Below are positions 2,962 through 61,625 of a stretch of 64,000 nucleotides of DNA, one piece after another. The position numbers and the translations under genes were made by a program. The notes beneath the pieces were generated by a model, which saw only the letters and a list, made by a program, of their open reading frames with translations, was not told the DNA's origin and ran no database searches. Source of the stretch: Candidatus Sulfomarinibacteraceae bacterium. GTDB lineage: Bacteria > Acidobacteriota > Thermoanaerobaculia > Thermoanaerobaculales > Sulfomarinibacteraceae. Where the stretch lies: contig CAWCLO010000003.1 in assembly GCA_963796455.1 (NCBI GenBank), positions 160,001 through 224,000 on the forward strand, read 5' to 3'. Positions within the stretch are counted from its first letter, which is position 1. The number at the start of each line of letters is the position of its first letter.

Positions 2962-5900
2962 ATGGCACGAATTCGTCTGCACTCGGTGAAGCTGTCGGGC
3001 TTCAAGTCTTTTCCTGATGAGGTGGAACTCGCCTTTCCGGGAAGGGTGTCGGCGATTATCGGACCGAACGGATGCGGCAAGTCCAATCTGGTGGACGCTA
3101 TCCTCTGGGTTCTGGGCGAACAGAGCCCCTCGCTCATGCGCCTCAAACAGATGGGGGATGTGGTCTTCTCCGGTGCCAAATCGCGACCGGCGGCGGGCTC
3201 GGCGGAGGTCACTCTTGTCCTGGCATCGGACGAGGGTCACTGGAAAGAAACCGACGGCCGGCTCGAGGTTCGGCGCCGCGTCTTCCGGACCGGTCCTTCC
3301 GAATACCGGCTCAACGGGCGCACCGTACGACTGAAGGACATCTTCGATGAACTTGCCGGCGTCGGTCTCGGCACCCGTGCCTACTCCATCATCGAACAGG
3401 GCCGGGTCGGTCAGGTGCTTTCAGCGCGCCCGATCGACCGCCGGGCGCTGCTCGAGGAAGCCGCCGGAATCACCCGCTATAAGGCCCGCAAGCACGAATC
3501 TGAGCTCAAGCTCGAGCACACCCGCCAGAATCTTCTCCGCCTCGATGACGTGATCTCCGAGGTCGACCGGACGCTGCGCCAGATCAAACGCCAGGCCAAA
3601 CAGGCCGAACGTCACCAGAAGCTCGAAATCGAACTCGTCGAACACCTGCGACGTCTCTTCACCATCGAGGCCCACAGCCTCGACGCACAGCGAACCGAAG
3701 TGACCCGCCGGCGCGCGATGGGCCAGAATGAGGTCGCTGCCGCCGCTGCGGCCCTCGGTGGCTGCGACGCAGACCTCGGCGGGGCCAGAAAAGAGCTCGA
3801 GGTAGCCCGTCACGAGACTGAAGCGGCTCGCGAAGAGGTCGCGACCCTGCTCGGTTCCCGCGAGCGCCTGGAGGCCTTTCTCGAACGCTCCGCCGACATG
3901 CTCGACACGCTGCGTGCGTCGCTCGACCACACCAAGACCGAGACAGCCACCCTTGGTTCCTCTCGCGGTACCCTCGAGACCGCACTCACAGAGGCCGGCA
4001 GCCGCCATGAGGATCTGCTGACCAATCTCGAACGGATGCAAAAGGACGTCGCCGCCGCACGCACATCCTACGAGGAGACGGACGGACGACGCGGGGAGGC
4101 CGAACAGGCCGCCGCGAAACAACGGCAGGATCTTCTCCGGACCATCTCATCGCTGACCGAGAGCCGCAATCGTCTCGGCGATTTCGAGCGCGAAAAAGAC
4201 CGTCTCACCTACACCCTGAGTCAACTCGACCGCGATCAGAAACGGCTCATGGAGCGTCACCAGGAACTCGGTGAAAACGTCGGACAGGCCGCCGAGAAGA
4301 GTCGGGCCGCAGCGGCAAGCGCCAAAGAGATCGCAACACGCCGTCGTGAAATTTCCGACCGCCGAGCCCGCCTCCAGGAGGAAGCGACCACCGTCAAACA
4401 CGACAACGAGTCCCTCGGCCACTCTTTGTGGGATCTCCGCCACCGGCTCCAGGGAGTCGAACGCCAGATCGCACGACATGCAGCCGCGGCCGACGCGATG
4501 AGTGACATGATCCCCACCGATCTCGTGATCGGTCAGCTTGGTGACTTCCTCCACCCCGACGCCGAGCTCGCACCGCTGCTCGACCGCGCGTGGCGGGAAT
4601 GGCTCGAGCTCCCCGTCGTCCGTGCTCAGGCCCTTTCGAGCGAACAGCTCATGATTGCCAGAGAACTCGAAGGGCGCGTGCGGCTGGTGGCGGCGGACGA
4701 GGTGCCCGAGGCGGCGCCGGCGGCGGTGCCGAACGGTGCCCGCGACCTCCTCGCCGAGGCCGGTGTCGAGCCCAGACACCGCGGTTGGCTGACCCGCTCA
4801 TTGCCGCCGACATACTTTGTTGACGACGCACGACGGGCCGCGGCAATCGCCGACGAAAACCCGACCGCGATCGTGGTCAGCTCAGACGGGGTACTCCGAC
4901 AGGGGCGGGTTCTAGAACCCACCACCGCTGGAGACCGTCATCCCGGTGCTTTGGTCCTCCGCACCCATCAGCTTGAACTGCGAAAAAATATCGACGAGTT
5001 CACGGCTCGCACCGAGAGTTCGTCCGACCGCCTGCGAGAAGTCAGCGCCGAGTTGGAGGGCCAGACCCTGAGCCTGTCCAGCCTCGATGCCGAACTGGTG
5101 GATGCAGAACAAGAACGGGCGAGGACCGCGGCGATCGCAGACTCCCTGGCGCAGGATCTCGGCCGGGTCGAACGGGAGCTGGAGTCACTGGCGGCTGAAA
5201 AAGACCGCAACCTGGCGACCGCCACGGAGATCGACAACCGCCACCAGCGCCTTGAAATCGAGGTTGGAGAACTTGACCAACGCAGCCATGATCTCGAACA
5301 CGCCGTCGAGGACGCAGCCAACAAACTCGCGGTCCGGCGTGAAGAGACCGCCGAGAGACTTCGCGAACTTGACAGATGGCTCGCCGAAGAGCGGCTGGCC
5401 AAAGAACGAACCGAGGCCGCCCGGATCGAGGTCGAACGCGTAAAGAGCGAAATCGCCGCACTTGAAACCAGGGTGGGCGCGCTCGGGACCGAAGCCGAAC
5501 GGCTCGGCGCCGAAAAGGAAAACACCGAAAGAGAGGTGGTTCGGTCACGCACTCGTCTGGCGGAGGAACAGGGGCTGCTCGCCGCAGCGAGAGAACACGA
5601 ACGCCGGCAGGCCGAGGGAGTCGAGAACATCGCCAATCGTGTGGAAACGCTGGAAAAAGAGGTCCGTAAGCGGCGTGAACTGCACGACCAGGAACGCGAG
5701 AAACTGCACGCGATCGAGGTCGAGCTGACCCGCACCGAAGGAGAATGGGAGCGACTTCGAGAGCACGCGGCGGACGAACTGGGGATCGGACCGGAAGAGC
5801 TGCTTGCCGCCGAGCCCGATACCGAGGAAGACGCCGATGTCCTGCGCACCGACATCGACGGTATCCGGGCCAAACTGGAACGTCTCGGCCCTGTCAATCT

Positions 5901-6480
5901 CCTGGCGCTCAAGGAACTCGACGAACTGCAGGAACGATCGGAGTTTCTGGGTGGCCAGCGCAAGGACCTCGTGGAGGCCCTCAAAGCCCTGGACGAGACG
6001 ATTCGCGAAATCGACGCCACCTGCACCGAACGTTTTGTCGCGACATTCGAAAAGGTCAACGCAGTCTTTGCCGAAACCTTCAGCACGCTTTTCGGTGGCG
6101 GCACGGCCCGTCTCGATCTGGTGGACGAGGACGACCCGCTGGAGTCCGGAATCGATATCACCGCGCAACCTCCCGGCAAACGGAACCAGTCGGTGCAGTT
6201 GTTGTCCGGTGGCGAGAAGGCCTTGAGCGCTCTGTCTCTTCTGCTGGCGCTTTTCCGCATCAAGCCTTCCCCCTTCTGCATCCTCGATGAGGTCGACGCG
6301 CCCCTCGATGACGCCAATGTCGGCCGTTTTTCAGATCTCGTGAAGGCGATGACCGAACACACCCAGTTTGTCCTCATCACCCACAACCGCCGCACCATGG
6401 CCCACGCCGATCTGCTTTATGGCGTGACGATGGAAGAGCCCGGTGTCTCCAAGGTCGTTTCGGTGCGGGTGGAAGAGTGA
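2962..6480 (+). CDS. smc: Chromosome segregation protein SMC
   Basis: GFKSF, Walker A GPNGCGKSN, long coiled coils, LSGGEK signature, LDEVDAPLD Walker B/D-loop; 1172 aa. Confidence 0.97.
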   Translation: MARIRLHSVKLSGFKSFPDEVELAFPGRVSAIIGPNGCGKSNLVDAILWVLGEQSPSLMRLKQMGDVVFSGAKSRPAAGSAEVTLVLASDEGHWKETDGRLEVRRRVFRTGPSEYRLNGRTVRLKDIFDELAGVGLGTRAYSIIEQGRVGQVLSARPIDRRALLEEAAGITRYKARKHESELKLEHTRQNLLRLDDVISEVDRTLRQIKRQAKQAERHQKLEIELVEHLRRLFTIEAHSLDAQRTEVTRRRAMGQNEVAAAAAALGGCDADLGGARKELEVARHETEAAREEVATLLGSRERLEAFLERSADMLDTLRASLDHTKTETATLGSSRGTLETALTEAGSRHEDLLTNLERMQKDVAAARTSYEETDGRRGEAEQAAAKQRQDLLRTISSLTESRNRLGDFEREKDRLTYTLSQLDRDQKRLMERHQELGENVGQAAEKSRAAAASAKEIATRRREISDRRARLQEEATTVKHDNESLGHSLWDLRHRLQGVERQIARHAAAADAMSDMIPTDLVIGQLGDFLHPDAELAPLLDRAWREWLELPVVRAQALSSEQLMIARELEGRVRLVAADEVPEAAPAAVPNGARDLLAEAGVEPRHRGWLTRSLPPTYFVDDARRAAAIADENPTAIVVSSDGVLRQGRVLEPTTAGDRHPGALVLRTHQLELRKNIDEFTARTESSSDRLREVSAELEGQTLSLSSLDAELVDAEQERARTAAIADSLAQDLGRVERELESLAAEKDRNLATATEIDNRHQRLEIEVGELDQRSHDLEHAVEDAANKLAVRREETAERLRELDRWLAEERLAKERTEAARIEVERVKSEIAALETRVGALGTEAERLGAEKENTEREVVRSRTRLAEEQGLLAAAREHERRQAEGVENIANRVETLEKEVRKRRELHDQEREKLHAIEVELTRTEGEWERLREHAADELGIGPEELLAAEPDTEEDADVLRTDIDGIRAKLERLGPVNLLALKELDELQERSEFLGGQRKDLVEALKALDETIREIDATCTERFVATFEKVNAVFAETFSTLFGGGTARLDLVDEDDPLESGIDITAQPPGKRNQSVQLLSGGEKALSALSLLLALFRIKPSPFCILDEVDAPLDDANVGRFSDLVKAMTEHTQFVLITHNRRTMAHADLLYGVTMEEPGVSKVVSVRVEE

Positions 6481-6495
6481 AGTAAGGATCTGGAA

Positions 6496-7165
6496 CCACT
6501 CTTGTCCAAGACAGAGTCTCAGACAGCGTTCAGGGACAGCGACGGCGAACAGTAGTCAGGGGCAGCGTTCAGTCATCAGCGGCAGCGAACAGCGGCCGGG
6601 GCAGCGATAGCACCAGTGATCAGCTCTCACTTCGTCGGGTTCAGCAAACGCCAGGTCATCGCACGGACCTGATCGAATGCGTTCATCGCTTCACTGGCTC
6701 CGTTCGGGCTGATCGCCCCGGCGTGGGCGAGGAGCTCCAAGTGGCTGTCGACCTCTTTCGCCGAAGCGTAGGCGATCCTCCAGTCGTTCAACCGGTCTCT
6801 ACCGAATCGACCGTACCCTTCTGCCAGGTTCGCAGGGACTGAATTTGCCGACCGGATTACCTGATCGGCAATGAACTTCAGCGGAGCTGGAACCCTCATT
6901 ACAAGCTTGATCGCGATGCCTGCTGCTTCGAGGGCTTTCGCGTGGGCAACGAGGTTGGTGTGCTTGGCGGCGTTGGCCATGGTCACCTCCGGGTCGTTCA
7001 TGCCCAGTCCCACAAGCCGGTGTGGCCACGCCGCCACTGCACCTGATCGCTGGCCCTGAACACTGATTGCTGCCCCCTGTCCCTGTTCGCTGTTGCCTGT
7101 CGCTGTCGCTGGTAGCTGACGCGGATTCCTGTCGCTGATCGCAGATGCTGTCCGCCGCCCCTGAT
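6496..7165 (-). mobile_element. Putative four-helix-bundle cassette, full copy A (CAG-rich arm, gene, CTG-rich arm)
   Basis: Gene enclosed by complementary degenerate ~6-mer arms; the same arms recur at 14601-14945, 28241-28575 and 58700-59100. Confidence 0.65.
6627..6980 (-). CDS. Four helix bundle protein (23S rRNA IVS protein / bAvd-like), 117 aa
   Basis: DQVIRSANSVPANLAEGYGR...IAYASAKEVDSHL matches the family motif; GGAGG RBS 5 nt before ATG 6980. Confidence 0.9.
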   Translation of the reverse strand: MANAAKHTNLVAHAKALEAAGIAIKLVMRVPAPLKFIADQVIRSANSVPANLAEGYGRFGRDRLNDWRIAYASAKEVDSHLELLAHAGAISPNGASEAMNAFDQVRAMTWRLLNPTK

Positions 7166-7193: not shown

Positions 7194-7988
7194 ATGCCGG
7201 AATCGAGCAGACAATGGCGGCTGATCATCGACGGCGCCCTCCCGGGCGCCTCGAACATGGCCCGCGACGTGGCCACCCTCGAGGCCGTCTCGAAGGGTGA
7301 GTCCCCACCCACCCTGCGTCTTTACGGTTGGACCCCACCCTGCCTGACCCTCGGCCGGCACCAGGGCATCGAGGCGGCGGACACGGATTTCTGTCACGAC
7401 GAAGGCATCGACGTGGTGCGTCGCCCGACTGGCGGCAGGGCGCTGCTTCACCACCTTGAACTGACCTACTCGGTGGTCGCTCCTCTCGACCAGGGGCCGC
7501 TGCCGCGCGGCCTCCAGGAGGCCTACGGGACCATCTGTGGGGTATTGGTTCAGGCGATGCGAGATCTCGGCGTCGACGCCGAACTGACAGGCGGCGAAGT
7601 CAACCTGCAGCTTCCGGGCCCGAGAACCGCTGTCCCCTGTTTCGAAGCACCGGCCGGCGGAGAGATCGTTGTTCGAGGAAAGAAACTCATCGGTTCGGCC
7701 ATGCGCTCGCACAAAGGCGTGATCCTCCAACACGGCGCCATCCTGCTCGACTGGGACAGCCGCCTTCAGGCGGGCTCGATGGGTCTGGCCGACGACCACG
7801 GCCTCCGACCCCACATCACCACGCTCTCGGACGAACTCGAAGGAACCATCAGCCGCGACGAGCTGCAGAAGGTGATCCTCTCCGGCTTCAGCGACGTGCT
7901 CGATATCAGCTGCGTCGAAGCTCGGCCGAGCCCGTCCGAAGAACATCGAATGGGCGGGTTGGCGGATTCATTCGTCGTCAAAGGATGA
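7194..7988 (+). CDS. Lipoate-protein ligase A family protein (LipM-like)
   Basis: NMARD, LRLYGW, VRRPTGGRALLH, PCF, KKLIGSA and LQHG motifs. Confidence 0.9.
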   Translation: MPESSRQWRLIIDGALPGASNMARDVATLEAVSKGESPPTLRLYGWTPPCLTLGRHQGIEAADTDFCHDEGIDVVRRPTGGRALLHHLELTYSVVAPLDQGPLPRGLQEAYGTICGVLVQAMRDLGVDAELTGGEVNLQLPGPRTAVPCFEAPAGGEIVVRGKKLIGSAMRSHKGVILQHGAILLDWDSRLQAGSMGLADDHGLRPHITTLSDELEGTISRDELQKVILSGFSDVLDISCVEARPSPSEEHRMGGLADSFVVKG

Positions 7989-14600: not shown

Positions 14601-14945
14601 ACAAGACGCAGAATTCAGGGACAGCGACAGGGAACGGCAGACAGCGGCGGCGATCAGTGTGCAGCGGCAGAGATCAGGGGCAGCAATCAGGTGCAGTGAC
14701 GGCGTGGTCACCTCCGGGTCGTTCAACAGAAGGAACAGCCGTTGTGGTGTAGGCGTCTCGCCTGCACACCGTGCGGCCGAGACGGCCGCACCACAAATGC
14801 CGGAGCCCCGAAGATATGACTGCTGTTCACTGTCCCGGCCGCTGATCGCTGACCCTGATGACTGAACGCTGCCGCTGACTCCTGTTCGCTGTCGCTGAAT
14901 TCTGTTGCTGGCGCTGAACTCTGACGCTGTCGTCCCTGTCCCGGA
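14601..14945 (+). mobile_element. Empty four-helix-bundle cassette derivative B with internal REP pair
   Basis: Arms match copy A; ~200 bp near-identical to the reverse complement of 58848-59050; REPs at 14744-14794. Confidence 0.7.
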
Positions 14946-15159
14946 CAGCAGTGATGGTCGGTGTTCGATCGGGCCCCATAACCCGAACGACCAAACGGGT
15001 CCTTGAGGCTTGAGGCGCCGATTCAGTCGCCGCATCACCACGATTGTCAAGCCCCAAGCCTCAGGTCCCAGGCCCTTTGAGGCGAGTCCCGTCCCCTCCA
15101 TTGGGCACCATGTGTCGGGAGCGCGAACTAGGCTAGAATCGCCAGCGAAGGAGGCGCCA

Positions 15160-16221: not shown

Positions 16222-16239
16222 GCCCACCCAGGAGGACGA

Positions 16240-16393
16240 TGAGGCAATGGGGCTATGGAGCTATGGGGCTATGGGGCTCTCAGGCTTCAGGATCGGGAGA
16301 CCAGGCGGAGAGAATCCTCAAAGCCCCATTACCAGGGCGGGTAGCAACCGGTCATAGCTCCATAGCCCCATACCGCCATGCCCCATTGCCTCA
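16240..16393. repeat. Inverted pair of GGGGCTAT / ATAGCCCC octamer arms
   Basis: tgaggcaatggggctatggagctatggggctatgggg ... catagctccatagccccataccgccatgccccattgcctca. Confidence 0.8.
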
Positions 16394-16513
16394 GAGCCTT
16401 TCGCACCCGAAACCTATCAATAATCGAAACTTATGCTACCCTTGCCCGGTCAGCGGTTTGGTCGCTCGATCGCCGAGCACCCCGCTATTTCTTCATCAAG
16501 AACAGGAGACGTC

Positions 16514-18427
16514 GTGACCCGACGCATGCTCATCAACGCCCAGCGCCCCGACGAGGTGCGCATCGCCACCATGTCCGGCAAGATTCTCGACCGATACGAG
16601 GTTGCCGCCACCGAATCCGGTCTTTGCCGCGGCAATATCTATCGCGGCAACGTGGCCAATATCCAACCATCGCTCGATGCCGCCTTCGCAGATTTCGGCG
16701 AGGAGCGGGATGGTCTGTTGCGCGCGGCCGATGTGGTTCCCTCCCAGTACTACAAGAAACCCGACAACAAGGGCAAATACCCCCGCGTCGACCAGATACT
16801 GCAACGCGGCCAGCCCGTTCTGGTTCAGGTCGTGCGGGACGGTGTCGGCCGCAAGGGCGCCTTGCTGACTACCAACATCAGTATTGCCGGCCGCTATCTG
16901 GTTCTGATGCCCTTTGATGATGTCAGGGGCGTATCGCGCAAGGCCGAGGACGAAGAACGGGAACTCGTCAAGGATCGGGTGGCAAAACTCGAACTCCCGG
17001 AAGGATTCGGCGTCATTCTCCGGACCAACGCCCTCGACCAACCACAGAAAACGCTCAACCGCGATCTCAACGCCCTGCTCCGCCTGTGGAAGAAGATCCG
17101 AGCAGAATCCAAAACCGGCAAGGGCCCGAAGTTGCTTTACAGCGACCAGGACCTGATCGTTCAGGCGCTCCGCGACTCGCTCGACTCGTCGATTTCCGAG
17201 ATCCTTGTCGATGACGAAAAGGCATTCTCCAAGGCGCGCGGATACATGCAGACATTCATGCCGCGGGCGGGCAACCGGCTCGTGCACTACACCGATCGAA
17301 TGCCCCTCTTCAGCAAGTATGAGCTCGAGGAACAGATCGATCGCATCTACCAACGCAAGGTCGATCTCCCAAGCGGCGGGTCGATCGTTATTGACGGAAC
17401 CGAGGCGCTGACCGCCGTCGATGTCAACTCTGGAAGGGCCAACAAGGCCGGAAGCCAGGAAGAAACGGCCTACAACACCAATCTCGAAGCCGCCCGTGAG
17501 GTCGCCCGACAGCTCCGCATGCGCGACATCGGCGGTCTCGTGGTCGTGGATTTCATCGACATGCGCTCCCCCAAACACCGTCGCGAGGTCGAAAAGGTGA
17601 TGCGGGATGCGCTCAAGGACGACAAGGCGAGGACCAACGCCAGCCGTCTGTCGGAAAACGGCCTCTTGGAAATCAATCGTCAGCGCTTGAAAAAAGCGCT
17701 CCAGCTCCGCACCCACCGCGCCTGTCCGACCTGCAGCGGCACCGGCAGTATCGCCAGCCCGGAGCTTGTCGGGCTCAATATTCTGCGGCGGATCGAAACC
17801 CGCGCCGTGACCGGTCGTCTCGGTGGCGCCCGTGTCGAGCTGCACCCGGAACTTGCAGATGCCCTCCAGAATGAACGCCGCCAGGAGCTTGCAGCACTCG
17901 AACGTGAGTTCGATATTCAGGTGGAGATCATCGCCGCCCCGGATCTCCACCGCGCCGAAGAACGCATCGTTTGGAACGAGCGCTTGAAAAGCGAGGAGTC
18001 CACCGCTTCACCTGCGGTGAGCGCCGCCGATCTGGCCGAAGGCATGGGTCGCCAGAAAGCGCCGCGTCGAAAACAGAAGACCGAGGCAGCTGAGCCTGTC
18101 GAAGCTGCTGCGAGCGAAGACAGTCCGCCGGCCGGCGACAGCCCGAAGCCCCGACGCCGACGCCGGGGCGGACGGCGACGGAAGAAAAGCGCCAGTGCCG
18201 AGGCCGAGAGCACTGCCTCCTCCCCAGACAACGGCACTTCAAAAGACGCCGAACCGGCTCCCGCAGAGACGGAAGAGACAGTCGAGGCAAACGGACAAGA
18301 GAGCAAGACTCCGGCAAAGAAGAGTCGCCGTCGTCGTCCGAGGAGATCCAAGAAAAAGCCGGCAAAGACAGAATCTGCGGCTGAAGAGCCGCCGGCGACG
18401 CCTTCATTTGATCCCTTTGCGTATTAG
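16514..18427 (+). CDS. rne: Ribonuclease E/G family
   Basis: GNIYRG, S1 domain, EALTAVDVNSG, IGGLVVVDFIDM, CPTC Zn-link, Arg-rich disordered tail. Confidence 0.93.
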   Translation: MTRRMLINAQRPDEVRIATMSGKILDRYEVAATESGLCRGNIYRGNVANIQPSLDAAFADFGEERDGLLRAADVVPSQYYKKPDNKGKYPRVDQILQRGQPVLVQVVRDGVGRKGALLTTNISIAGRYLVLMPFDDVRGVSRKAEDEERELVKDRVAKLELPEGFGVILRTNALDQPQKTLNRDLNALLRLWKKIRAESKTGKGPKLLYSDQDLIVQALRDSLDSSISEILVDDEKAFSKARGYMQTFMPRAGNRLVHYTDRMPLFSKYELEEQIDRIYQRKVDLPSGGSIVIDGTEALTAVDVNSGRANKAGSQEETAYNTNLEAAREVARQLRMRDIGGLVVVDFIDMRSPKHRREVEKVMRDALKDDKARTNASRLSENGLLEINRQRLKKALQLRTHRACPTCSGTGSIASPELVGLNILRRIETRAVTGRLGGARVELHPELADALQNERRQELAALEREFDIQVEIIAAPDLHRAEERIVWNERLKSEESTASPAVSAADLAEGMGRQKAPRRKQKTEAAEPVEAAASEDSPPAGDSPKPRRRRRGGRRRKKSASAEAESTASSPDNGTSKDAEPAPAETEETVEANGQESKTPAKKSRRRRPRRSKKKPAKTESAAEEPPATPSFDPFAY

Positions 18428-18540
18428 GCTTTGGGGCTATGGGGCTATATGGGGCATTGGGGCTCAAGCCGACGGCTTCAGCGGCCTGCCATAGCCTCAC
18501 TGCCAGGCCGAGTCAGCGGCCGATCATAGCCTCACAACCC
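18428..18540. repeat. GGGGCTAT / CATAGCC inverted arms
   Basis: Begins immediately after the rne TAG; complementary catagcctcac units follow. Confidence 0.65.
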
Positions 18541-19170: not shown

Positions 19171-19463
19171 GGGATGGGAAAGGGAGAAAGGGGGAAAGGG
19201 AGAAAGGGAGACCGAGTATTCAGCCTCGTTTGGGGCAGGGACAATGAGCTGGCAGCCCACTTTCAAGATGTCATCCTGAGCGAAGCGCCCTTGGCGCGAA
19301 GTCGAAGGATCTGCGGCTCGAGGTCTTTGTTGTCCACCTCATAGATCCTTCGACTACGCCCCCTGTGGGGCTCCGCTCAGGATGACATCGGGAGACGACA
19401 TTCACATACAGGAGAATTCGGTGCCGGGCGTTTCTCCCTTTCTCCCTCTCCCCCTTTCTCCCC
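19171..19463. repeat. Composite repeat: GGGAGAAA arm, GTCATCCTGAGC palindrome, TTTCTCCC arm
   Basis: 16-bp IR at 19267-19282/19374-19389, inner IR at 19300-19312/19343-19355; related copies at 36.5-36.9 kb and 60.9-61.6 kb. Confidence 0.8.
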
Positions 19464-28157: not shown

Positions 28158-28240
28158 ATATTCTCCTCGTCTGCTGCAACACTCTACCTTTGCTCTTCTA
28201 CTCCCGCTCGATCGATGCTGGATGCTCGATGCTCGATCAA

Positions 28241-28575
28241 TCTTTTCCAAGACAGCGTTTTCAACAGCGTTCAGGGACAGCGGCGGGGATCAGCAGACAG
28301 CGTCAGCGAACAGGAGTCAGCTATCAGCGGCAGTGAGCAGCGACAGGGGACAGCGACAGGGAACAGCGTTCAGCCATCAGTGTTCAGGGGCAGCGGTCAG
28401 GAGTACAGGCGGCGATGGAGGTCTTCGCTCACGTCCGTGCCATCCCCCGGCGGCTGTTGAACCCGAAGAACCGAGTGCTGTTTGCTGCCGCTGGTGGCTG
28501 AACGCTGACGCTGACTACTGTTCGCTGTCACTGATTCCTGTTCGCCGACCCTGATTACCGTCGCTGCCGCTGCAA
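28241..28575 (+). mobile_element. Internally deleted four-helix-bundle cassette C
   Basis: Same arms as copy A; core 28412-28468 encodes AMEVFAHVRAIPRRLLNPK, similar to the copy A C-terminus AMNAFDQVRAMTWRLLNPTK. Confidence 0.75.
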
Positions 28576-28691
28576 TTCGGGCACGGACACGGGCCACCGC
28601 AAACCGGATATGCCAAAAACCAACCCGTAGACCTCGTGTTGTTAAACGGACAACTTCAAATGAAGATTTTTCTTGGACAGAAGTGGATTCC

Positions 28692-28732
28692 GATGGCGAT
28701 AGCGATAGAAGCGATAGCGATAGCGATAGCGA
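28692..28732 (+). repeat. GCGATA hexamer tandem
   Basis: gatggcgatagcgatagaagcgatagcgatagcgatagcga; the same unit recurs at ~36840 and 61115-61145. Confidence 0.7.
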
Positions 28733-28804
28733 ACACACAGTGACAGCAACGGACTCATAAGCGGCGTTACAATGCTTCTGCAGACCGAGCGAAGGAGGCA
28801 AACC

Positions 28805-29464
28805 ATGGGCAAAAAAATCGGGGTCGTTCTCTCCGGTTGCGGCGTCTACGATGGCGCAGAAATCCACGAATCGGTGATCACCCTGCTGGCCATCGACCGG
28901 CATGGGGCCGAGGCCATCATGTGTGCACCCAACAGACCTCAGCTCCACGTCGTCAACCATTTGACGGGAGAGGTGGAGGAAGGCGAAGAACGCAACGTCC
29001 TCGTCGAGTCGGCCCGAATTGCGCGCGGCGCAGTCAAGGATGTCATAGATATGTCGGCCGACGAATTGGACGGATTGATTCTCCCGGGTGGTTTCGGCGC
29101 GGCAAAGAATCTCTGTGATTTCGCCGTCTCCGGCGCGGAGTGTGCCGTCGATCCGGGCGTCGCCGCCCTGGTCCGCGAGGTCCACGAACAAGGCAAACCC
29201 GTCGCCGCGGTCTGTATCGCGCCCGCTCTCCTGGCCAAGGTCCTTGGCGGCGAGGGGCCCGAACTGACGATCGGCAACGACGCCGACACCGCCGGCGCGA
29301 TGGAGAGCATGGGCGCGACACACGTCGCCTGCCCGGTGGAGGACTTCGTGGTTGATCATGAGCGCAAACTGGTGAGCTCGCCAGCCTACATGCTCGCGGG
29401 CAACATTTCCGAGGCGGCCGAAGGGATCGAGAAGACGGTCGCTGCGCTGATCGAGATGGCTTAG
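28805..29464 (+). CDS. elbB: Glyoxalase ElbB (DJ-1/PfpI family)
   Basis: LSGCGVYDGAEIHE, RNVLVESARIARG, PGGFGAAKNL and CIAP motifs. Confidence 0.95.
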   Translation: MGKKIGVVLSGCGVYDGAEIHESVITLLAIDRHGAEAIMCAPNRPQLHVVNHLTGEVEEGEERNVLVESARIARGAVKDVIDMSADELDGLILPGGFGAAKNLCDFAVSGAECAVDPGVAALVREVHEQGKPVAAVCIAPALLAKVLGGEGPELTIGNDADTAGAMESMGATHVACPVEDFVVDHERKLVSSPAYMLAGNISEAAEGIEKTVAALIEMA

Positions 29465-29480
29465 GGGGCTCCAGGCCCCC

Positions 29481-29520
29481 GGGGCTATGGGGCTATGGGG
29501 CTATGGGGCTATGGGGCTAT
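29481..29520 (+). repeat. (GGGGCTAT)5 tandem repeat
   Basis: Five exact copies just after the elbB stop. Confidence 0.9.
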
Positions 29521-29564
29521 GGGCGTTGAGCGTAGAACCGACAACCCATGACGGATTGCCCGGG

Positions 29565-36470: not shown

Positions 36471-36925
36471 CAGAGGGGAAGAGGAGAAAGGGGGAAAGGG
36501 GGAAAGGGGGAAGGCTCGATTCGAGATTCTGGATGCAGGGTGCTTGACCCCCTCGACATGGCAGAGGGGCAGAGGGGCAGAGGGGCTCGAATCGAGATAC
36601 TAGATGCTGGATCCGGCCACCGCTCCAATCCCAAAAGGGAGAACCACTCGGCACCGATTCCTCCTGCATGCGAATGTCGCCTCCCGATGTCATCCTGAGC
36701 GGAGACCCAAGCCCACAGATCCTTCGACTTCGCGCCTTAGGCGCTTCGCTCAGGATGACATTTTGAACGACCGTTCCGATCCCGATCCCGTTCCCGAAAG
36801 TGAGAACAAGCCTCTACATGGCAGAGGGGCGAAGTAACGATCGCTATCGCTATCGGAATCACTATCGAACGGCTGAGGTGGATACCGTTCCTGAAAGGGA
36901 GAAAGGGAGAAGGGGGAAAGGGAGA
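36471..36925. repeat. Composite repeat with GTCATCCTGAGC palindrome (36687-36761)
   Basis: 36640-36910 matches the reverse complement of ~61075-61440; GGGGAAAG and GCAGAGGG tandem units. Confidence 0.8.
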
Positions 36926-36962
36926 TCGTCGCGGGTCGATCTACGTGATAAGGGCGGAGTCT

Positions 36963-37090
36963 CTCCTCTGCTCCTCTGCTCCTCTGCTCCTCTGCTCCTC
37001 TGCTCCTCTGCTCCTCTGCTCCTCTGCTCCTCTGCTCCTCTGCTCCTCTGCTCCTCTGCTCCTCTGCTCCTCTGCTCCTCTGCTCCTCTG
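36963..37090 (+). repeat. (CTCCTCTG)16 perfect tandem repeat
   Basis: 16 exact octamer copies counted. Confidence 0.95.
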
Positions 37091-37168
37091 CTTCCTTGCC
37101 CGGAATAAAGGAGTAGAATCGTCAACTGGGCGGAGTCAATCCGATCGCAACCGCCCGCTGGAGGCGTC

Positions 37169-47248: not shown

Positions 47249-47263
47249 CAAGTCCTCCACACC

Positions 47264-47372
47264 CGAATTTCGGATTTCGGATTTCCGATTTCGGATTTGG
47301 CGTCTGCGGTTCTACCGAATCTCTTATCGAACAGAGAAGAAACCCAAAATCCAAAATCCAAAACTCGCAATT
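47264..47372. repeat. Inverted heptamer arms (GGATTTC / AAAATCC) between the MarR gene and the OFOR delta gene
   Basis: gaatttcggatttcggatttccgatttcggattt ... aaacccaaaatccaaaatccaaaactcgcaatt. Confidence 0.8.
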
Positions 47373-58699: not shown

Positions 58700-59100
58700 T
58701 CACTCTTGTCCAAGACAGAGTCTCGGATAGCGTTCAGGAAGGGACCTGAAGGTGGGCCAAGGCCCACCTTCAGAGTTGGTTCCCAAAGCCTGGATCACTC
58801 GGCCCAGGTGGGAAGCACGGGACAGCGATCAGGGGCAGCGGCAGTGTTCAGTCGTCAGCGTCAGCGATCAGCGGCCGGGACAGTGAACAGCACTCATTTC
58901 TTCGGGGATCCGGCCTTGGTGGTGCGGCCGTCTCGGCCGCACGGTGGGCAGGAGAGACGCCGACACCACAGCGGCTGTTCCTTCTGTTGAACGACCCGGA
59001 GGTGATCACGCCGTCACTGCACCTGATTGCTGCCCCTGATCTCTGCCTCTGATCGCTGATCCCTGTCGCTGCCCCTGGACACTGTCGCTGCCGCTGCAAA
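58700..59100 (-). mobile_element. Empty four-helix-bundle cassette derivative D with REP pair and extra hairpin
   Basis: End CACTCTTGTCCAAGACAGAGTCTC is identical to the copy A end; core is the reverse complement of copy B; CTGAAGGTGGGCC hairpin at 58746-58773. Confidence 0.72.
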
Positions 59101-59138
59101 CCGGACAATAGCCCGGTCTCGGGCACGGGCTTCGATCC

Positions 59139-59580: not shown

Positions 59581-59683
59581 GGGGCTATGACCGGCCGCTC
59601 GCGCGACCTGGCTTTGTGGCTATGAGGCAGTCCGTGGGCGGCTCAGTGCCTCATAGCATCATAGCCCCATAGCCCCATAGCCA
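59581..59683. repeat. GGCTATGA / CATAGCCC inverted arms
   Basis: ggggctatga...gtggctatgaggca ... tgcctcatagcatcatagccccatagccccatagcc, abutting the purM stop. Confidence 0.75.
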
Positions 59684-59685
59684 AT

Positions 59686-60741
59686 CTACCGGAGACCCGA
59701 AGGATAACCCTCAGGGGGATGGTCGTACTCGACGCCACTCTCACCATCGACGACGTTGCCCATGGGGAATCCGGGGCTGCCGGTCTCGCGCAGGCTTTTG
59801 AGGACCTCTTTGAGCTTTTTGGGGGGCACGATCAGAACCATGCCGACCCCGAGATTGAAGGTCCGCCACATATCGTCCTCCGGCACCTGTCCCTTCTCGG
59901 CCAGGAGGCGAAAGACGGGGGGGACCTCCCACGCACCAACCTTGATGATCGCCCGCGCACCATCGGGCATGACCCGGGGAAGATTGTCGGTCAGGCCACC
60001 ACCCGTGATATGGGCCAGACCATGAACCGATCCGGCTTCGAGCAACGGCCAGACCTGCTGCAGATAGCACCTGTGCACGGCGAGCAACTCATCGGCGACG
60101 CTTCGCCCGAGTTCCGGGACCATATCGGTCGGGGCCATCCCGAGGGTCTCGAAGAAGACCTTCCGCGCCAGTGAGTAACCGTTTGTGTGGAGGCCGCTCG
60201 ATGGCAGGCCGACCAGCACGTCGCCCGGCCTCACGGCCGATCCGTCAACGATTCGCCGGCGGTCGACGATACCGACGATAAAACCAGCGAGATCGTATTC
60301 TCCGTCACCGTAAAACCCCGGCATCTCTGCCGTTTCACCGCCGAGGAGGGCCATCCCCTGCTCACCGCACCCGGCGGCCACCCCACCGATCACATCGGCC
60401 ACCACATCCGGTTCGAGACGACCGGTCGCCAGATAGTCGAGAAAGAAGAGCGGTCGAGCGCCCTGGACGAGGATGTCATTGATGCAGTGGTTGACCAGAT
60501 CGCGGCCGACGGTCGTATGACGACCGGTGGCAATCGCCACCATCAGCTTGGTGCCGACTCCATCGGCGGAGGAAACCAACACCGGTTCCTTGAATCCCTT
60601 TGGCACCCGAAAGAGCCCGCCAAAGGAGCCCTGGTCCGAGAGCACATCCTTGGTGTAGGTGCCGCGCACCATCTTTTTGACCTGGGCGAGAGCCCGGTCC
60701 TGGGCATCGATATCGACTCCGGCTTCGCGGTAGGTGGTCAT
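59686..60741 (-). CDS. purM: Phosphoribosylformylglycinamidine cyclo-ligase
   Basis: YREAGVDI, DGVGTK, GGETAEMP, GLHTNG, HITGGG and TFNLG motifs. Confidence 0.97.
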   Translation of the reverse strand: MTTYREAGVDIDAQDRALAQVKKMVRGTYTKDVLSDQGSFGGLFRVPKGFKEPVLVSSADGVGTKLMVAIATGRHTTVGRDLVNHCINDILVQGARPLFFLDYLATGRLEPDVVADVIGGVAAGCGEQGMALLGGETAEMPGFYGDGEYDLAGFIVGIVDRRRIVDGSAVRPGDVLVGLPSSGLHTNGYSLARKVFFETLGMAPTDMVPELGRSVADELLAVHRCYLQQVWPLLEAGSVHGLAHITGGGLTDNLPRVMPDGARAIIKVGAWEVPPVFRLLAEKGQVPEDDMWRTFNLGVGMVLIVPPKKLKEVLKSLRETGSPGFPMGNVVDGESGVEYDHPPEGYPSGLR

Positions 60742-60748
60742 GTGGGCT

Positions 60749-61625
60749 CCGATCCCGTTCCCGATCCCGTTCCCGATCCCGAAGGGGATCGTTCAGAAGG
60801 ACCGAGCCTATCTTGTGACGAGACCATATCGACCGGATCGACGACACGCAAGTGCCGAGAGATCCCGGTTCGCCGCGGATCGGGATCGAAGCGGAATCAA
60901 AAACCAAGGCTGAGAAACCGCAGATCACGCAGATGGACGCAGATAAGGAATCGGTGCCGGAATCGCTATCGAGGTGAGGGCAATCCCCCTCTGCCCCTCT
61001 GCCACATGGCGTATGGTTCCCCCTTTCTCCCTCTCTCCCTTTCTCCCTTTCGGGAATCGGCGTCGGGTGGTCTCCCTTTCTCCCTTTCATGAGCGGTATC
61101 CACAGCAGCCGTTCGATAGCGATAGCGATTCCGATAGCGATAGCGACGATGCCGAGCGATCCTCTGCCCCTCCGCCACCAAGCCCCTCTGCCATGTGGAC
61201 GCTTGTTCTCCCCATAGGGATCGGGACGGTGCGTCAAGATGTCATCCTGAGCGAAGCGTCTATGGCGCGGAGTCGAAGGATCTGCGGTCATGGGTCTTTC
61301 CCTTGTGCGCCATAGATCCTTCGACTGCGCCCCTTCCGGCTTCGCCTTTCAGGCTACGCCGTGACAAGGCGGGGCTCCGCTCAGGATGACATCGGGAGGC
61401 GACATTCCCGTACAGGAGGAATCAGCGCCGGGTGGATTCCCCTTTCCCCCTTTCGGGAACGGATAGGGTGGTGTCTTTCCCCCGTCGGGATTCGTATCCA
61501 CAGCAGCCGTTCGATAGCGATAGCGACGATGCCGAGCGGTCCTCTGCCCCTCTGCCCCTCTGCCAAGTGGCATATGGTTCCCCCTTTCTCCCTTTCTCCC
61601 TTTCCCCCTTTCCCCCTTTCGGGCT
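60749..61625. repeat. Large composite repeat with internal direct duplications and GTCATCCTGAGC palindrome (61238-61393)
   Basis: Modules shared with 394-426, 19267-19430 and 36640-36910; duplications ~60985-61050 vs 61541-61620 and ~61097-61170 vs 61496-61552. Confidence 0.8.

Follow-up and report, generated by a model that had tools for sequence, protein, structure and literature searches.

Introduction

A gene for a four-helix-bundle protein that lies between two complementary repeat arms, with the same arms recurring between other genes, raises the question of what unit it belongs to and how that unit has spread. Such a locus is found in a genome of Candidatus Sulfomarinibacteraceae, within the stretch of 64,000 nucleotides of contig CAWCLO010000003.1 that was analysed here (the window). 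An initial annotation had proposed that arms and gene form one mobile unit with MITE-like derivatives, a candidate new mobile system whose movement might rely either on the hairpin and the four-helix protein or on a factor encoded elsewhere. In what follows, G000 is the source genome and other G-numbers are related genomes, L-numbers are loci taken from them, and C-numbers are contigs.

The Locus between smc and the Lipoate Ligase Gene

The open reading frame at this locus, hereafter copy A, is a real gene, as had been supposed. In profile searches its protein matched PF05635 (E 1.3e-14, 54.7 bits, cut-off 33.8) and TIGR02436 (E 8e-16, 58.1 bits, cut-off 24). The complementarity of the arms was likewise confirmed by a local score of 50 (500 shuffles: mean 16.6, maximum 30), and the whole segment folds at z -3.4, which none of 20 shuffles equalled. 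Three further arm copies (B, C and D) lie where they had been reported, and the terminal motif said to be shared by copies A and D is identical over 24 nt (6497-6520 and 58701-58724). The boundaries originally drawn were wrong, in that intact copies elsewhere in the genome continue for about another 120 bp on the 5' side of the gene, as far as a second inverted repeat. Copy A retains the right end only, and since it is without the other end, a 9-bp target duplication cannot be scored for it. Its 89-nt deletion removed the 5' half of the leader hairpin, which is missing in copy A alone among 60 near-full copies and present in the other 59.

Table 1. Coordinates in the window of copy A, its flanking genes and copies B, C and D.
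Feature	Position	Strand	Remarks
smc, flanking host gene	2962-6480	+	outside the element
Copy A terminal inverted repeat and subterminal sequence, gene's 3' side	6497-6526 (repeat 6497-6514)	+	source: left end of an IS4-family element
Copy A downstream arm, mixed 6- and 7-nt units	6524-6626	-	begins at the stop codon
Copy A gene, PF05635/TIGR02436 four-helix bundle	6627-6980	-	117 aa from ATG; open; 8 private amino-acid changes
Copy A leader stem P1, 3' strand	6978-7000	-	holds start codon and Shine-Dalgarno-like site (6984-6990); pairing partner deleted
Copy A inner stem P2 remnant and 89-nt deletion junction (7022-7029)	7011-7029	-	aligned to 59 other copies
Copy A upstream arm, complementary to the downstream arm	7030-7165	-	~120-bp IS-derived end of intact copies absent beyond
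Lipoate-protein ligase family gene, flanking host gene	7194-7988	+	outside the element
Copy B, gene-less derivative	14601-14953	+	
Copy C, 448-bp two-ended derivative	28238-28685	-	
Copy D, REP-core derivative	58701-59130	-	

The Full-Length Cassette and Its Copies in the Genome

Flank alignment of the G000 copies placed the intact cassette at about 855 bp. An 18-bp left repeat opens the cassette and is followed by about 105 bp of unique sequence and by the first arm, which mixes units of 6 and 7 nt. A nested hairpin of 133 nt comes next, ahead of the gene, and beyond the gene lie the second, complementary arm and the right repeat, also of 18 bp. The outer stem of the leader hairpin pairs with the Shine-Dalgarno site and the start codon; in the upstream arms of 60 copies, CAG spacings of 6 and 7 are the commonest (354 each). 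No transposase lies in the interior, where the passenger ORF takes its place.

The 5.0-Mb genome contains 70 matches to PF05635, all except four of which are close paralogues or fragments, and 60 of the paralogues align over at least 100 aa. Ends of the 6497-6526 type number 136 in the whole genome, and arm loci 244: 65 carry at least 300 nt of the gene, 40 a fragment, 66 a REP core only and 73 neither. Arms with and without the gene thus bear out the proposal that arms and gene belong to a single mobile unit from which MITE-like derivatives have arisen. The arm loci are also intergenic, as had been noted in the window; none of the 195 longer than 150 nt sits mostly within a gene, with genes defined by an ORF model built for this analysis. 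The cassette copies share a mean identity of 89% and have distinct flanks on long contigs. Among 56 scorable copies the gene runs convergent to the host 3' end in 39 (p 0.005), and 23 lie between converging genes, against a background of 21%. End types are swapped or doubled in 5 of the 60 gene-bearing copies.

The four divergent PF05635 genes of G000 each lie within their own inverted short repeats, and no IS ends were seen in the flanks read; their repeat units are among the commoner arrays of the genome. Other 6-8-nt tandem arrays in the window (36955-37100; 16226-16400, 18410-18460, 29458-29531 and 59635-59693; 28683-28735 and 61118-61140) use units that flank the divergent four-helix-bundle genes at C4:1278094, C1:983149 and C10:733004, with a fourth unit at C9:2726. 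There is one gene subfamily per repeat unit, and many arrays are without a gene. Arrays of the GAATTCC/GGATTTC type, the commonest 7-nt array of G000, occur at 1812-1921, 2786-2814 and 47263-47305, partly as inverted pairs.

Ends, Target Duplications and Cognate Transposases

When 56 left-right pairs of cassette ends were compared, flank identity at an offset of 9 bp was 0.79 as against 0.52 in mismatched pairs, and 0.12-0.29 at other offsets; for the inner five bases of the 9-mer it was 0.76 against 0.41. The 9-bp duplications are perfect in 17 of the 56 pairs and have at least 3 mismatches in 18. The target consensus is AT-N5-AT. Most targets lie within heptamer arrays, which are able to mimic a duplication, and duplications were also seen at several non-array targets; 43 of 101 heptamer arrays of the target type adjoin a cassette end.

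The source of these ends was found in related genomes. By pattern search, 10 of 24 congeners were found to have the left repeat (control: 0-1 matches each), and one of 40 fetched loci (L015 of G017) is an intact IS4-family element of 1411 bp. Its transposase matches NF033592 (E 1e-74), has the domains DUF4372 (PF14294) and DDE_Tnp_1 (PF01609), and carries a Y-2-R-3-E-6-K motif in translation. The right end of this element equals the cassette left repeat at 18 of 18 positions, with similarity continuing over the following 90 bp (score 47; highest shuffle 40). In a second element (G054, L043), 78% identical to the first, the left end upstream of the IS4 transposase matches 6497-6526 at 27 of 30 positions. 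Because the two ends correspond in this way, the passenger is antisense to the lost transposase gene. The same IS4 ends also bound unrelated gene-less elements of 250-390 bp in G008, G012, G020, G021 and G024. Members of the subgroup IS4Sa have ends of the form CA------T and duplications of 8-10 bp (PMC2266710, Table 1), and size, ends, motif and duplication length agree with this subgroup.

With the G017 transposase as query, no cognate IS4 transposase was matched in G000, an assembly that is 90.5% complete. The G017 type was matched in 7 of 77 genomes of the family and in only one of 24 congeners, G017 itself; none of the congeners that are copy-rich like G000 had it. As a candidate mover, G000's own DDE transposase (C7:291107), its sole PF01609 gene, was rejected on account of its unrelated ends.

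The suggestion that the hairpin and the four-helix protein alone bring about movement does not agree with a unit that has IS4-family ends and 9-bp target duplications, and these same features make a factor encoded elsewhere the option that fits. Because the ends are of the IS4 family and the cognate transposase was not matched in G000, we favour a mobile insertion cassette, probably mobilised in trans, over a transposase-free system. With a probability of roughly 0.8, copy A is a truncated, transposase-less cassette of about 855 bp with IS4-family ends that has likely been spread by an IS4 transposase in trans. Judged by its sequence features, the cassette appears to be a variant of the known mobile insertion cassettes, with MITE derivatives, and not a new mobility chemistry.

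Gene-Less Copies and the REP Doublet

The reading of copies B, C and D as gene-less derivatives holds as regards the absence of the gene, but B and D are not simple deletions. Copy B contains the leader 5' strand (14709-14725), a REP doublet (about 14742-14796), a remnant of the gene's last codons and a degenerate right inverted repeat (14936-14953). In copy D the right inverted repeat is intact (58701-58718), the left end is truncated, and there is an additional 28-nt hairpin (58746-58773). In both copies the REP doublet lies between the first strand of the leader and the last codons of the gene. Copy C is two-ended, and its gene remnant (28412-28470) is on the + strand, so that the core is inverted relative to both ends.

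The REP doublet of copies B and D is nearly identical to repeats beside a Y1 transposase gene at C1:952748. Such REP cores number 72 genome-wide, and cassette copies contain 72 of the 120 matches to that REP. The mark of a REPIN, a REP doublet with counterparts on either side of a Y1 gene, was found in the B/D cores only and not in the gene-bearing form. REP-core copies also occur with both IS4 repeats and 9-bp duplications, and their ends have decayed at 5.7% of sites compared with 5.2% in gene-bearing copies.

G000 has six Y1 genes. Three short ones (C1:952748, C4:210157 and C1:740752) each have REP-like palindromes of their own on either side, and inverted repeats bound two longer ones that are nearly identical to each other (C4:1144044 and C4:1147021). 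A separate family of 55-85-bp palindromic repeats, which we take to resemble CGTC-tagged REPs, occurs at three places in the window (19262-19450, 36634-36786 and 61214-61445).

Empty Sites and Reuse of Gaps

The junction between smc and the lipoate ligase gene (lplA) was readable in 6 of the 22 congeners with a ligase match. The gene is absent from it in five, and the sixth, G020, holds its own variant with other ends, which is 92% like other G020 copies and 75% like copy A. On a larger scale, 109 cassette loci from relatives yielded 39 syntenic sites, of which 20 are empty in G000; the other 19 contain an arm element, a share to be set beside a background of 6-10%. Vacant orthologous sites are thus frequent, in the relatives as in G000. 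Side by side with these, the smc-ligase gap of L114, L121, L122 and L124, where it is without the cassette, carries another palindromic repeat family.

At the shared gaps the cassettes have the same orientation in 8 cases and the opposite in 6, with 5 of 19 unscorable, and their local flanks differ. This near-equal split indicates reuse of permissive gaps, as with independent insertions. Overwriting at fixed ancestral sites, an idea prompted by the G020 variant, was given up in favour of hot-spot reuse, given the random orientation. A younger burst is seen in a related genome, where 29 of 29 loci are two-ended, 16 have perfect duplications, end decay is 2.3% and gene identity 96%.

In conspecific data no precise empty allele was seen; 17 DNA data sets share words with the locus, at most 0.29 of them, no RNA data set with such words was found, and contig sets from four sediment runs, compared with C7:245000-259600, gave only short-sided joints inside repeats. 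Between G000 and G006 the cassette genes share 86% DNA identity and the lipoate ligase genes 73%, both genomes having cassettes with IS4 ends, and a transfer of the cassette between the two lineages is possible. Cassettes with 77-83% protein identity were also found in bins labelled Alphaproteobacteria or Bathyarchaeota (L235, L261, L265 and L269), the former with IS4 ends and duplications with 0-1 mismatch, the latter with ISL3 ends; they would represent either horizontal transfer or mis-binned contigs.

The Same Passenger between Other Ends

The four-helix gene is present in 18 of 24 congeners, and in several of them, G005, G008, G014, G016 and G020 included, the ends on either side of it are of another type and the duplication measures 8 bp (identity 0.68 at offset 8 and at most 0.38 at other offsets). 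Pattern and DNA searches for the transposase of this second shell gave no result, and an ISL3 family search succeeded: ISL3 elements of G017 and G022 have the second-shell ends. These distinct shells indicate that IS4 and ISL3 ends captured the passenger independently. At L294 (G017:C613), an intact ISL3 element adjoins a four-helix cassette that has an end of the ISL3 type; the cognate IS4 element is likewise present in G017.

G040, which lies outside the family, yielded 44 matches. Their leader folds in a similar way, hexamer arrays occur, the genes are often paired and convergent, and IS4 or ISL3 ends were not seen in the flanks read. In the G040 loci L055-L074, two leader-gene modules face each other within same-direction hexamer arrays, with a REP-like hairpin interspersed. 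Inverted short repeats were seen by eye on both sides of at least 8 of 14 distant homologues from other phyla.

Selection and Recombination among Copies

For 59 genes (one frameshifted copy was dropped), pS is 0.28, pN 0.055 and dN/dS 0.16. The left end shows 19% diversity, the right end 15% and the leader 5.3%. Among 22 copies with both ends, the terminal repeats are off consensus at 5.2% of sites and new nonsynonymous changes amount to 0.47% (18/3812), a comparison that is not like for like in that the gene columns are limited to near-invariant ones; the better-kept target duplications are off at 6.8% (13 copies). Fragments differ at 1.2-4.2%, and for frameshifted and deleted copies the figure is no more than 1.2-1.6% of constrained sites; a younger age of intact copies may therefore account for some of the contrast. 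Two further genomes have an excess of synonymous variants among singletons (synonymous to nonsynonymous 47:34 and 35:23, on sites of about 1:3). In G000 the singleton N/S is 0.57, a value closer to neutral and inflated by synonymous-site saturation. Together, these data indicate that the passenger gene is under purifying selection among copies and far better conserved than the surrounding ends. Copy A differs from the others, with changes at 8 of 173 sites (4.6%) against 52 of 10058 (p 7e-6), a comparison that concerns one copy and was noticed after the fact; it appears to have decayed at a near-neutral rate.

Neutral decay is what would be expected of a passenger mobilised in trans, and therefore the model of IS4 transposition in trans does not by itself explain this conservation. 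The contrast between shared and singleton dN/dS was considered as proof of cis action and rejected, given that saturation inflates the singleton ratio and that singletons are purified in the two other genomes too. A tie between selection and intact ends was likewise dropped, there being no clear pattern across end classes; end decay and amino-acid changes do not correlate (rho 0.19, p 0.38).

Linkage among copies decays within about 30 nt (r2 0.11 within 20 nt and 0.025 far apart; maximum of 60 permutations 0.053), from which it follows that the copies recombine. They are mosaics that cluster by genome.

The Leader Hairpin

Compensatory changes were found in 20 of 44 leader pairs among 30 copies. 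Wobbles comprise 16 G-U and 33 A-C, or 13 and 19 by position; they show no bias towards the sense strand, so that a hairpin of RNA cannot be told from one of DNA. A strand-specific wobble signal, strong in raw counts, became weak after shared variants were collapsed and was dropped as evidence. A conserved RTAG lies just before the inner stem. When a sigma-70 promoter starting from the TTGACA of the inner stem was looked for by eye, no consistent -10 site was seen at canonical spacing. Rfam gave no match in the window or in three other G000 loci; in 20 related loci it gave only tRNAs and one Acido-Lenti-1 match (L235:943-989, within a cassette arm). In loci from several genomes (L021, L078, L087 and L235), a shared insert of about 110 nt breaks or replaces the inner leader stem, and the start-codon strand is retained.

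Protein Fold and Relation to Known Systems

The predicted structure of the copy A protein has four helices (pLDDT 92.9). It is closest to Xcc0516 and BT_0352, with 2GSC and 2RLD at a TM score of at least 0.8, and it matches bAvd (4DWL) and chains of the DGR ribonucleoprotein at a TM of about 0.8 and an rmsd of 1.6-1.8 A, in agreement with the Avd- and IVS-like fold first suggested. Cassette proteins are basic, with a median net charge of +6, and the protein may form a putative homopentameric nucleic-acid-binding ring. The likeness to DGR bAvd extends to fold and basic charge; unlike that system, sequence identity is about 10%, and a search of G000 for reverse transcriptases (PF00078) gave 0 matches. 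A resemblance of PF05635 to Avd is also described in the available part of PMC10053308.

The closest parallel is MIC231 of Bacillus cereus s.l. (IS231 subgroup of IS4), which, like the cassette, has two IS4-family inverted repeats and a passenger ORF without a transposase. According to the available part of PMC6199540, MIC231 elements measure 0.7-3 kb and keep a conserved subterminal IS remnant, as the cassette does, and their transposition in trans has been demonstrated. Unlike MIC231, the cassette has ends that fit IS4Sa and not IS231, reaches about 60 gene-bearing copies per genome, carries a passenger with no known host benefit, brings its own leader and repeat arms, and also rides ISL3 ends. 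It resembles IS-derived MITEs in its many intergenic copies, its deletion subfamilies and a cognate transposase not found in the genome, but differs from them in that a gene under purifying selection is kept at a quarter of cassette loci and that one subfamily has captured a REP doublet.

The ORF-bearing intervening sequences (IVS) of 23S rRNA (S23p; Coxiella, Leptospira) encode the same protein family and fold, and there too complementary ends enclose the gene. In contrast to them, copy A lies between smc and the lipoate ligase gene, and rRNA models matched in 0 of 24 sources scanned; this analysis found no IVS carrying the cassette leader. The available text of PMC4990558 reports heptamer repeats upstream of the ORF in one IVS, and treats a transposon origin of the IVS, or a role of its ORF in mobility, as long-standing hypotheses. 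The REP doublet of copies B and D, with its counterpart around a Y1 gene, recalls REPINs/RAYT and the TIRtrons (Di Nocera et al. 2013, PMC3733652), but the cassette has ends of the DDE type, flanked by target duplications, and the available part of that paper does not mention four-helix proteins, S23 or heptamers. From sources likewise available in part, PF05635 genes are reported inside cas loci (PMC3936711) and in rRNA insertions of CPR bacteria (10.1101/2024.02.27.582315), and unexplained heptamer repeats are described in a text that does not mention a helix bundle (PMC4679880); related literature on the topic includes PMC5524665. No description of this cassette was found in the literature searched, most subscription papers lying outside its coverage.

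Possible Mechanism and Alternative Explanations

A course of events consistent with these observations may be outlined. The passenger would have replaced, in antisense, the transposase gene of an IS4Sa-like element, and a helper copy, now lost or unassembled, would then have multiplied both the cassette and the derivatives that have no gene. The new copies would have entered AT-N5-AT targets, often in heptamer arrays close to the 3' ends of genes. In one derivative a REP doublet may have replaced the gene and then been amplified in the same way. After insertion, leader-bearing genes would have remained under selection, most likely through a predicted Avd-like ring made from, and acting on, its own hairpin transcript; copy A, having lost its leader, would then drift. 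Such local action on the own hairpin transcript is our preferred explanation of the conservation, and a dominant-negative effect of faulty subunits, or a benefit to the host, would also fit. A more far-reaching reading, which we offer tentatively and regard as possible rather than probable, is that leader, gene and arms are a selfish or symbiotic element, a free-living form of the ORF-bearing rRNA IVS. Its ring protein would act at each locus on its own hairpin RNA or ssDNA and so keep dozens of copies under selection, while the module repeatedly takes on unrelated IS ends and its arms seed the 6-8-nt repeat arrays seen in genomes of this kind.

Three other explanations of the spread have to be weighed against IS4 transposition in trans. 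The module might move or overwrite copies by itself, through its hairpins and four-helix protein, with IS ends as occasional wrappers. Its constancy across shells (IS4, ISL3 and none seen in G040) would agree with this, as would the mosaic copies that cluster by genome (r2 0.11 against a maximum of 0.053), the four divergent genes in their own inverted repeats and the reuse of gaps (19 of 39). Yet the target duplications lie at the IS ends and not at the arms, gene-less copies have spread equally (72 REP-core copies, and 9 copies with one shared deletion), and in the reused gaps the orientation is random and the local flanks differ. Moreover, we know of no catalytic site in the four-helix-bundle fold, and a reverse transcriptase was not found in G000. 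We therefore consider self-movement unlikely.

Spread by a Y1/HUH transposase (RAYT or TIRYT), with the hairpins as REP-like substrates, seems more doubtful still. The six Y1 genes of G000, the closeness of the B/D core to the REPs at C1:952748, the share of REP matches that fall within cassettes and the RTAG before the inner leader stem all speak for such an enzyme. The REP-core copies, however, have both IS4 repeats and 9-bp duplications with end decay equal to that of gene-bearing copies, and Y1 enzymes are not known to make target duplications; a Y1 enzyme probably explains how the REP entered the cassette, not how the cassette spread. Least credible is the view that no transposition took place, the copies being old fixed insertions homogenised by gene conversion or products of mis-assembled metagenome bins. 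Recombination among copies is evident and 19 of 39 syntenic gaps are common to relatives, as this view would expect, but it is contradicted by the per-copy target duplications. Nor does it sit well with a mean identity of 89% and distinct flanks on long contigs, with 20 of 39 sites empty in G000, or with the younger burst in a relative. Insertion by an IS4 transposase in trans thus remains the preferred account of the spread.

Implications

The four-helix-bundle family has been without an assigned function for three decades. Here a relative of the IVS genes is found on a defined transposable unit for which a cognate transposase is at hand, and its mobility is therefore directly testable. A passenger that is purified at dozens of loci and has been captured by both IS4 and ISL3 ends is unlike a neutral passenger, and copy A offers a natural leader-less control.
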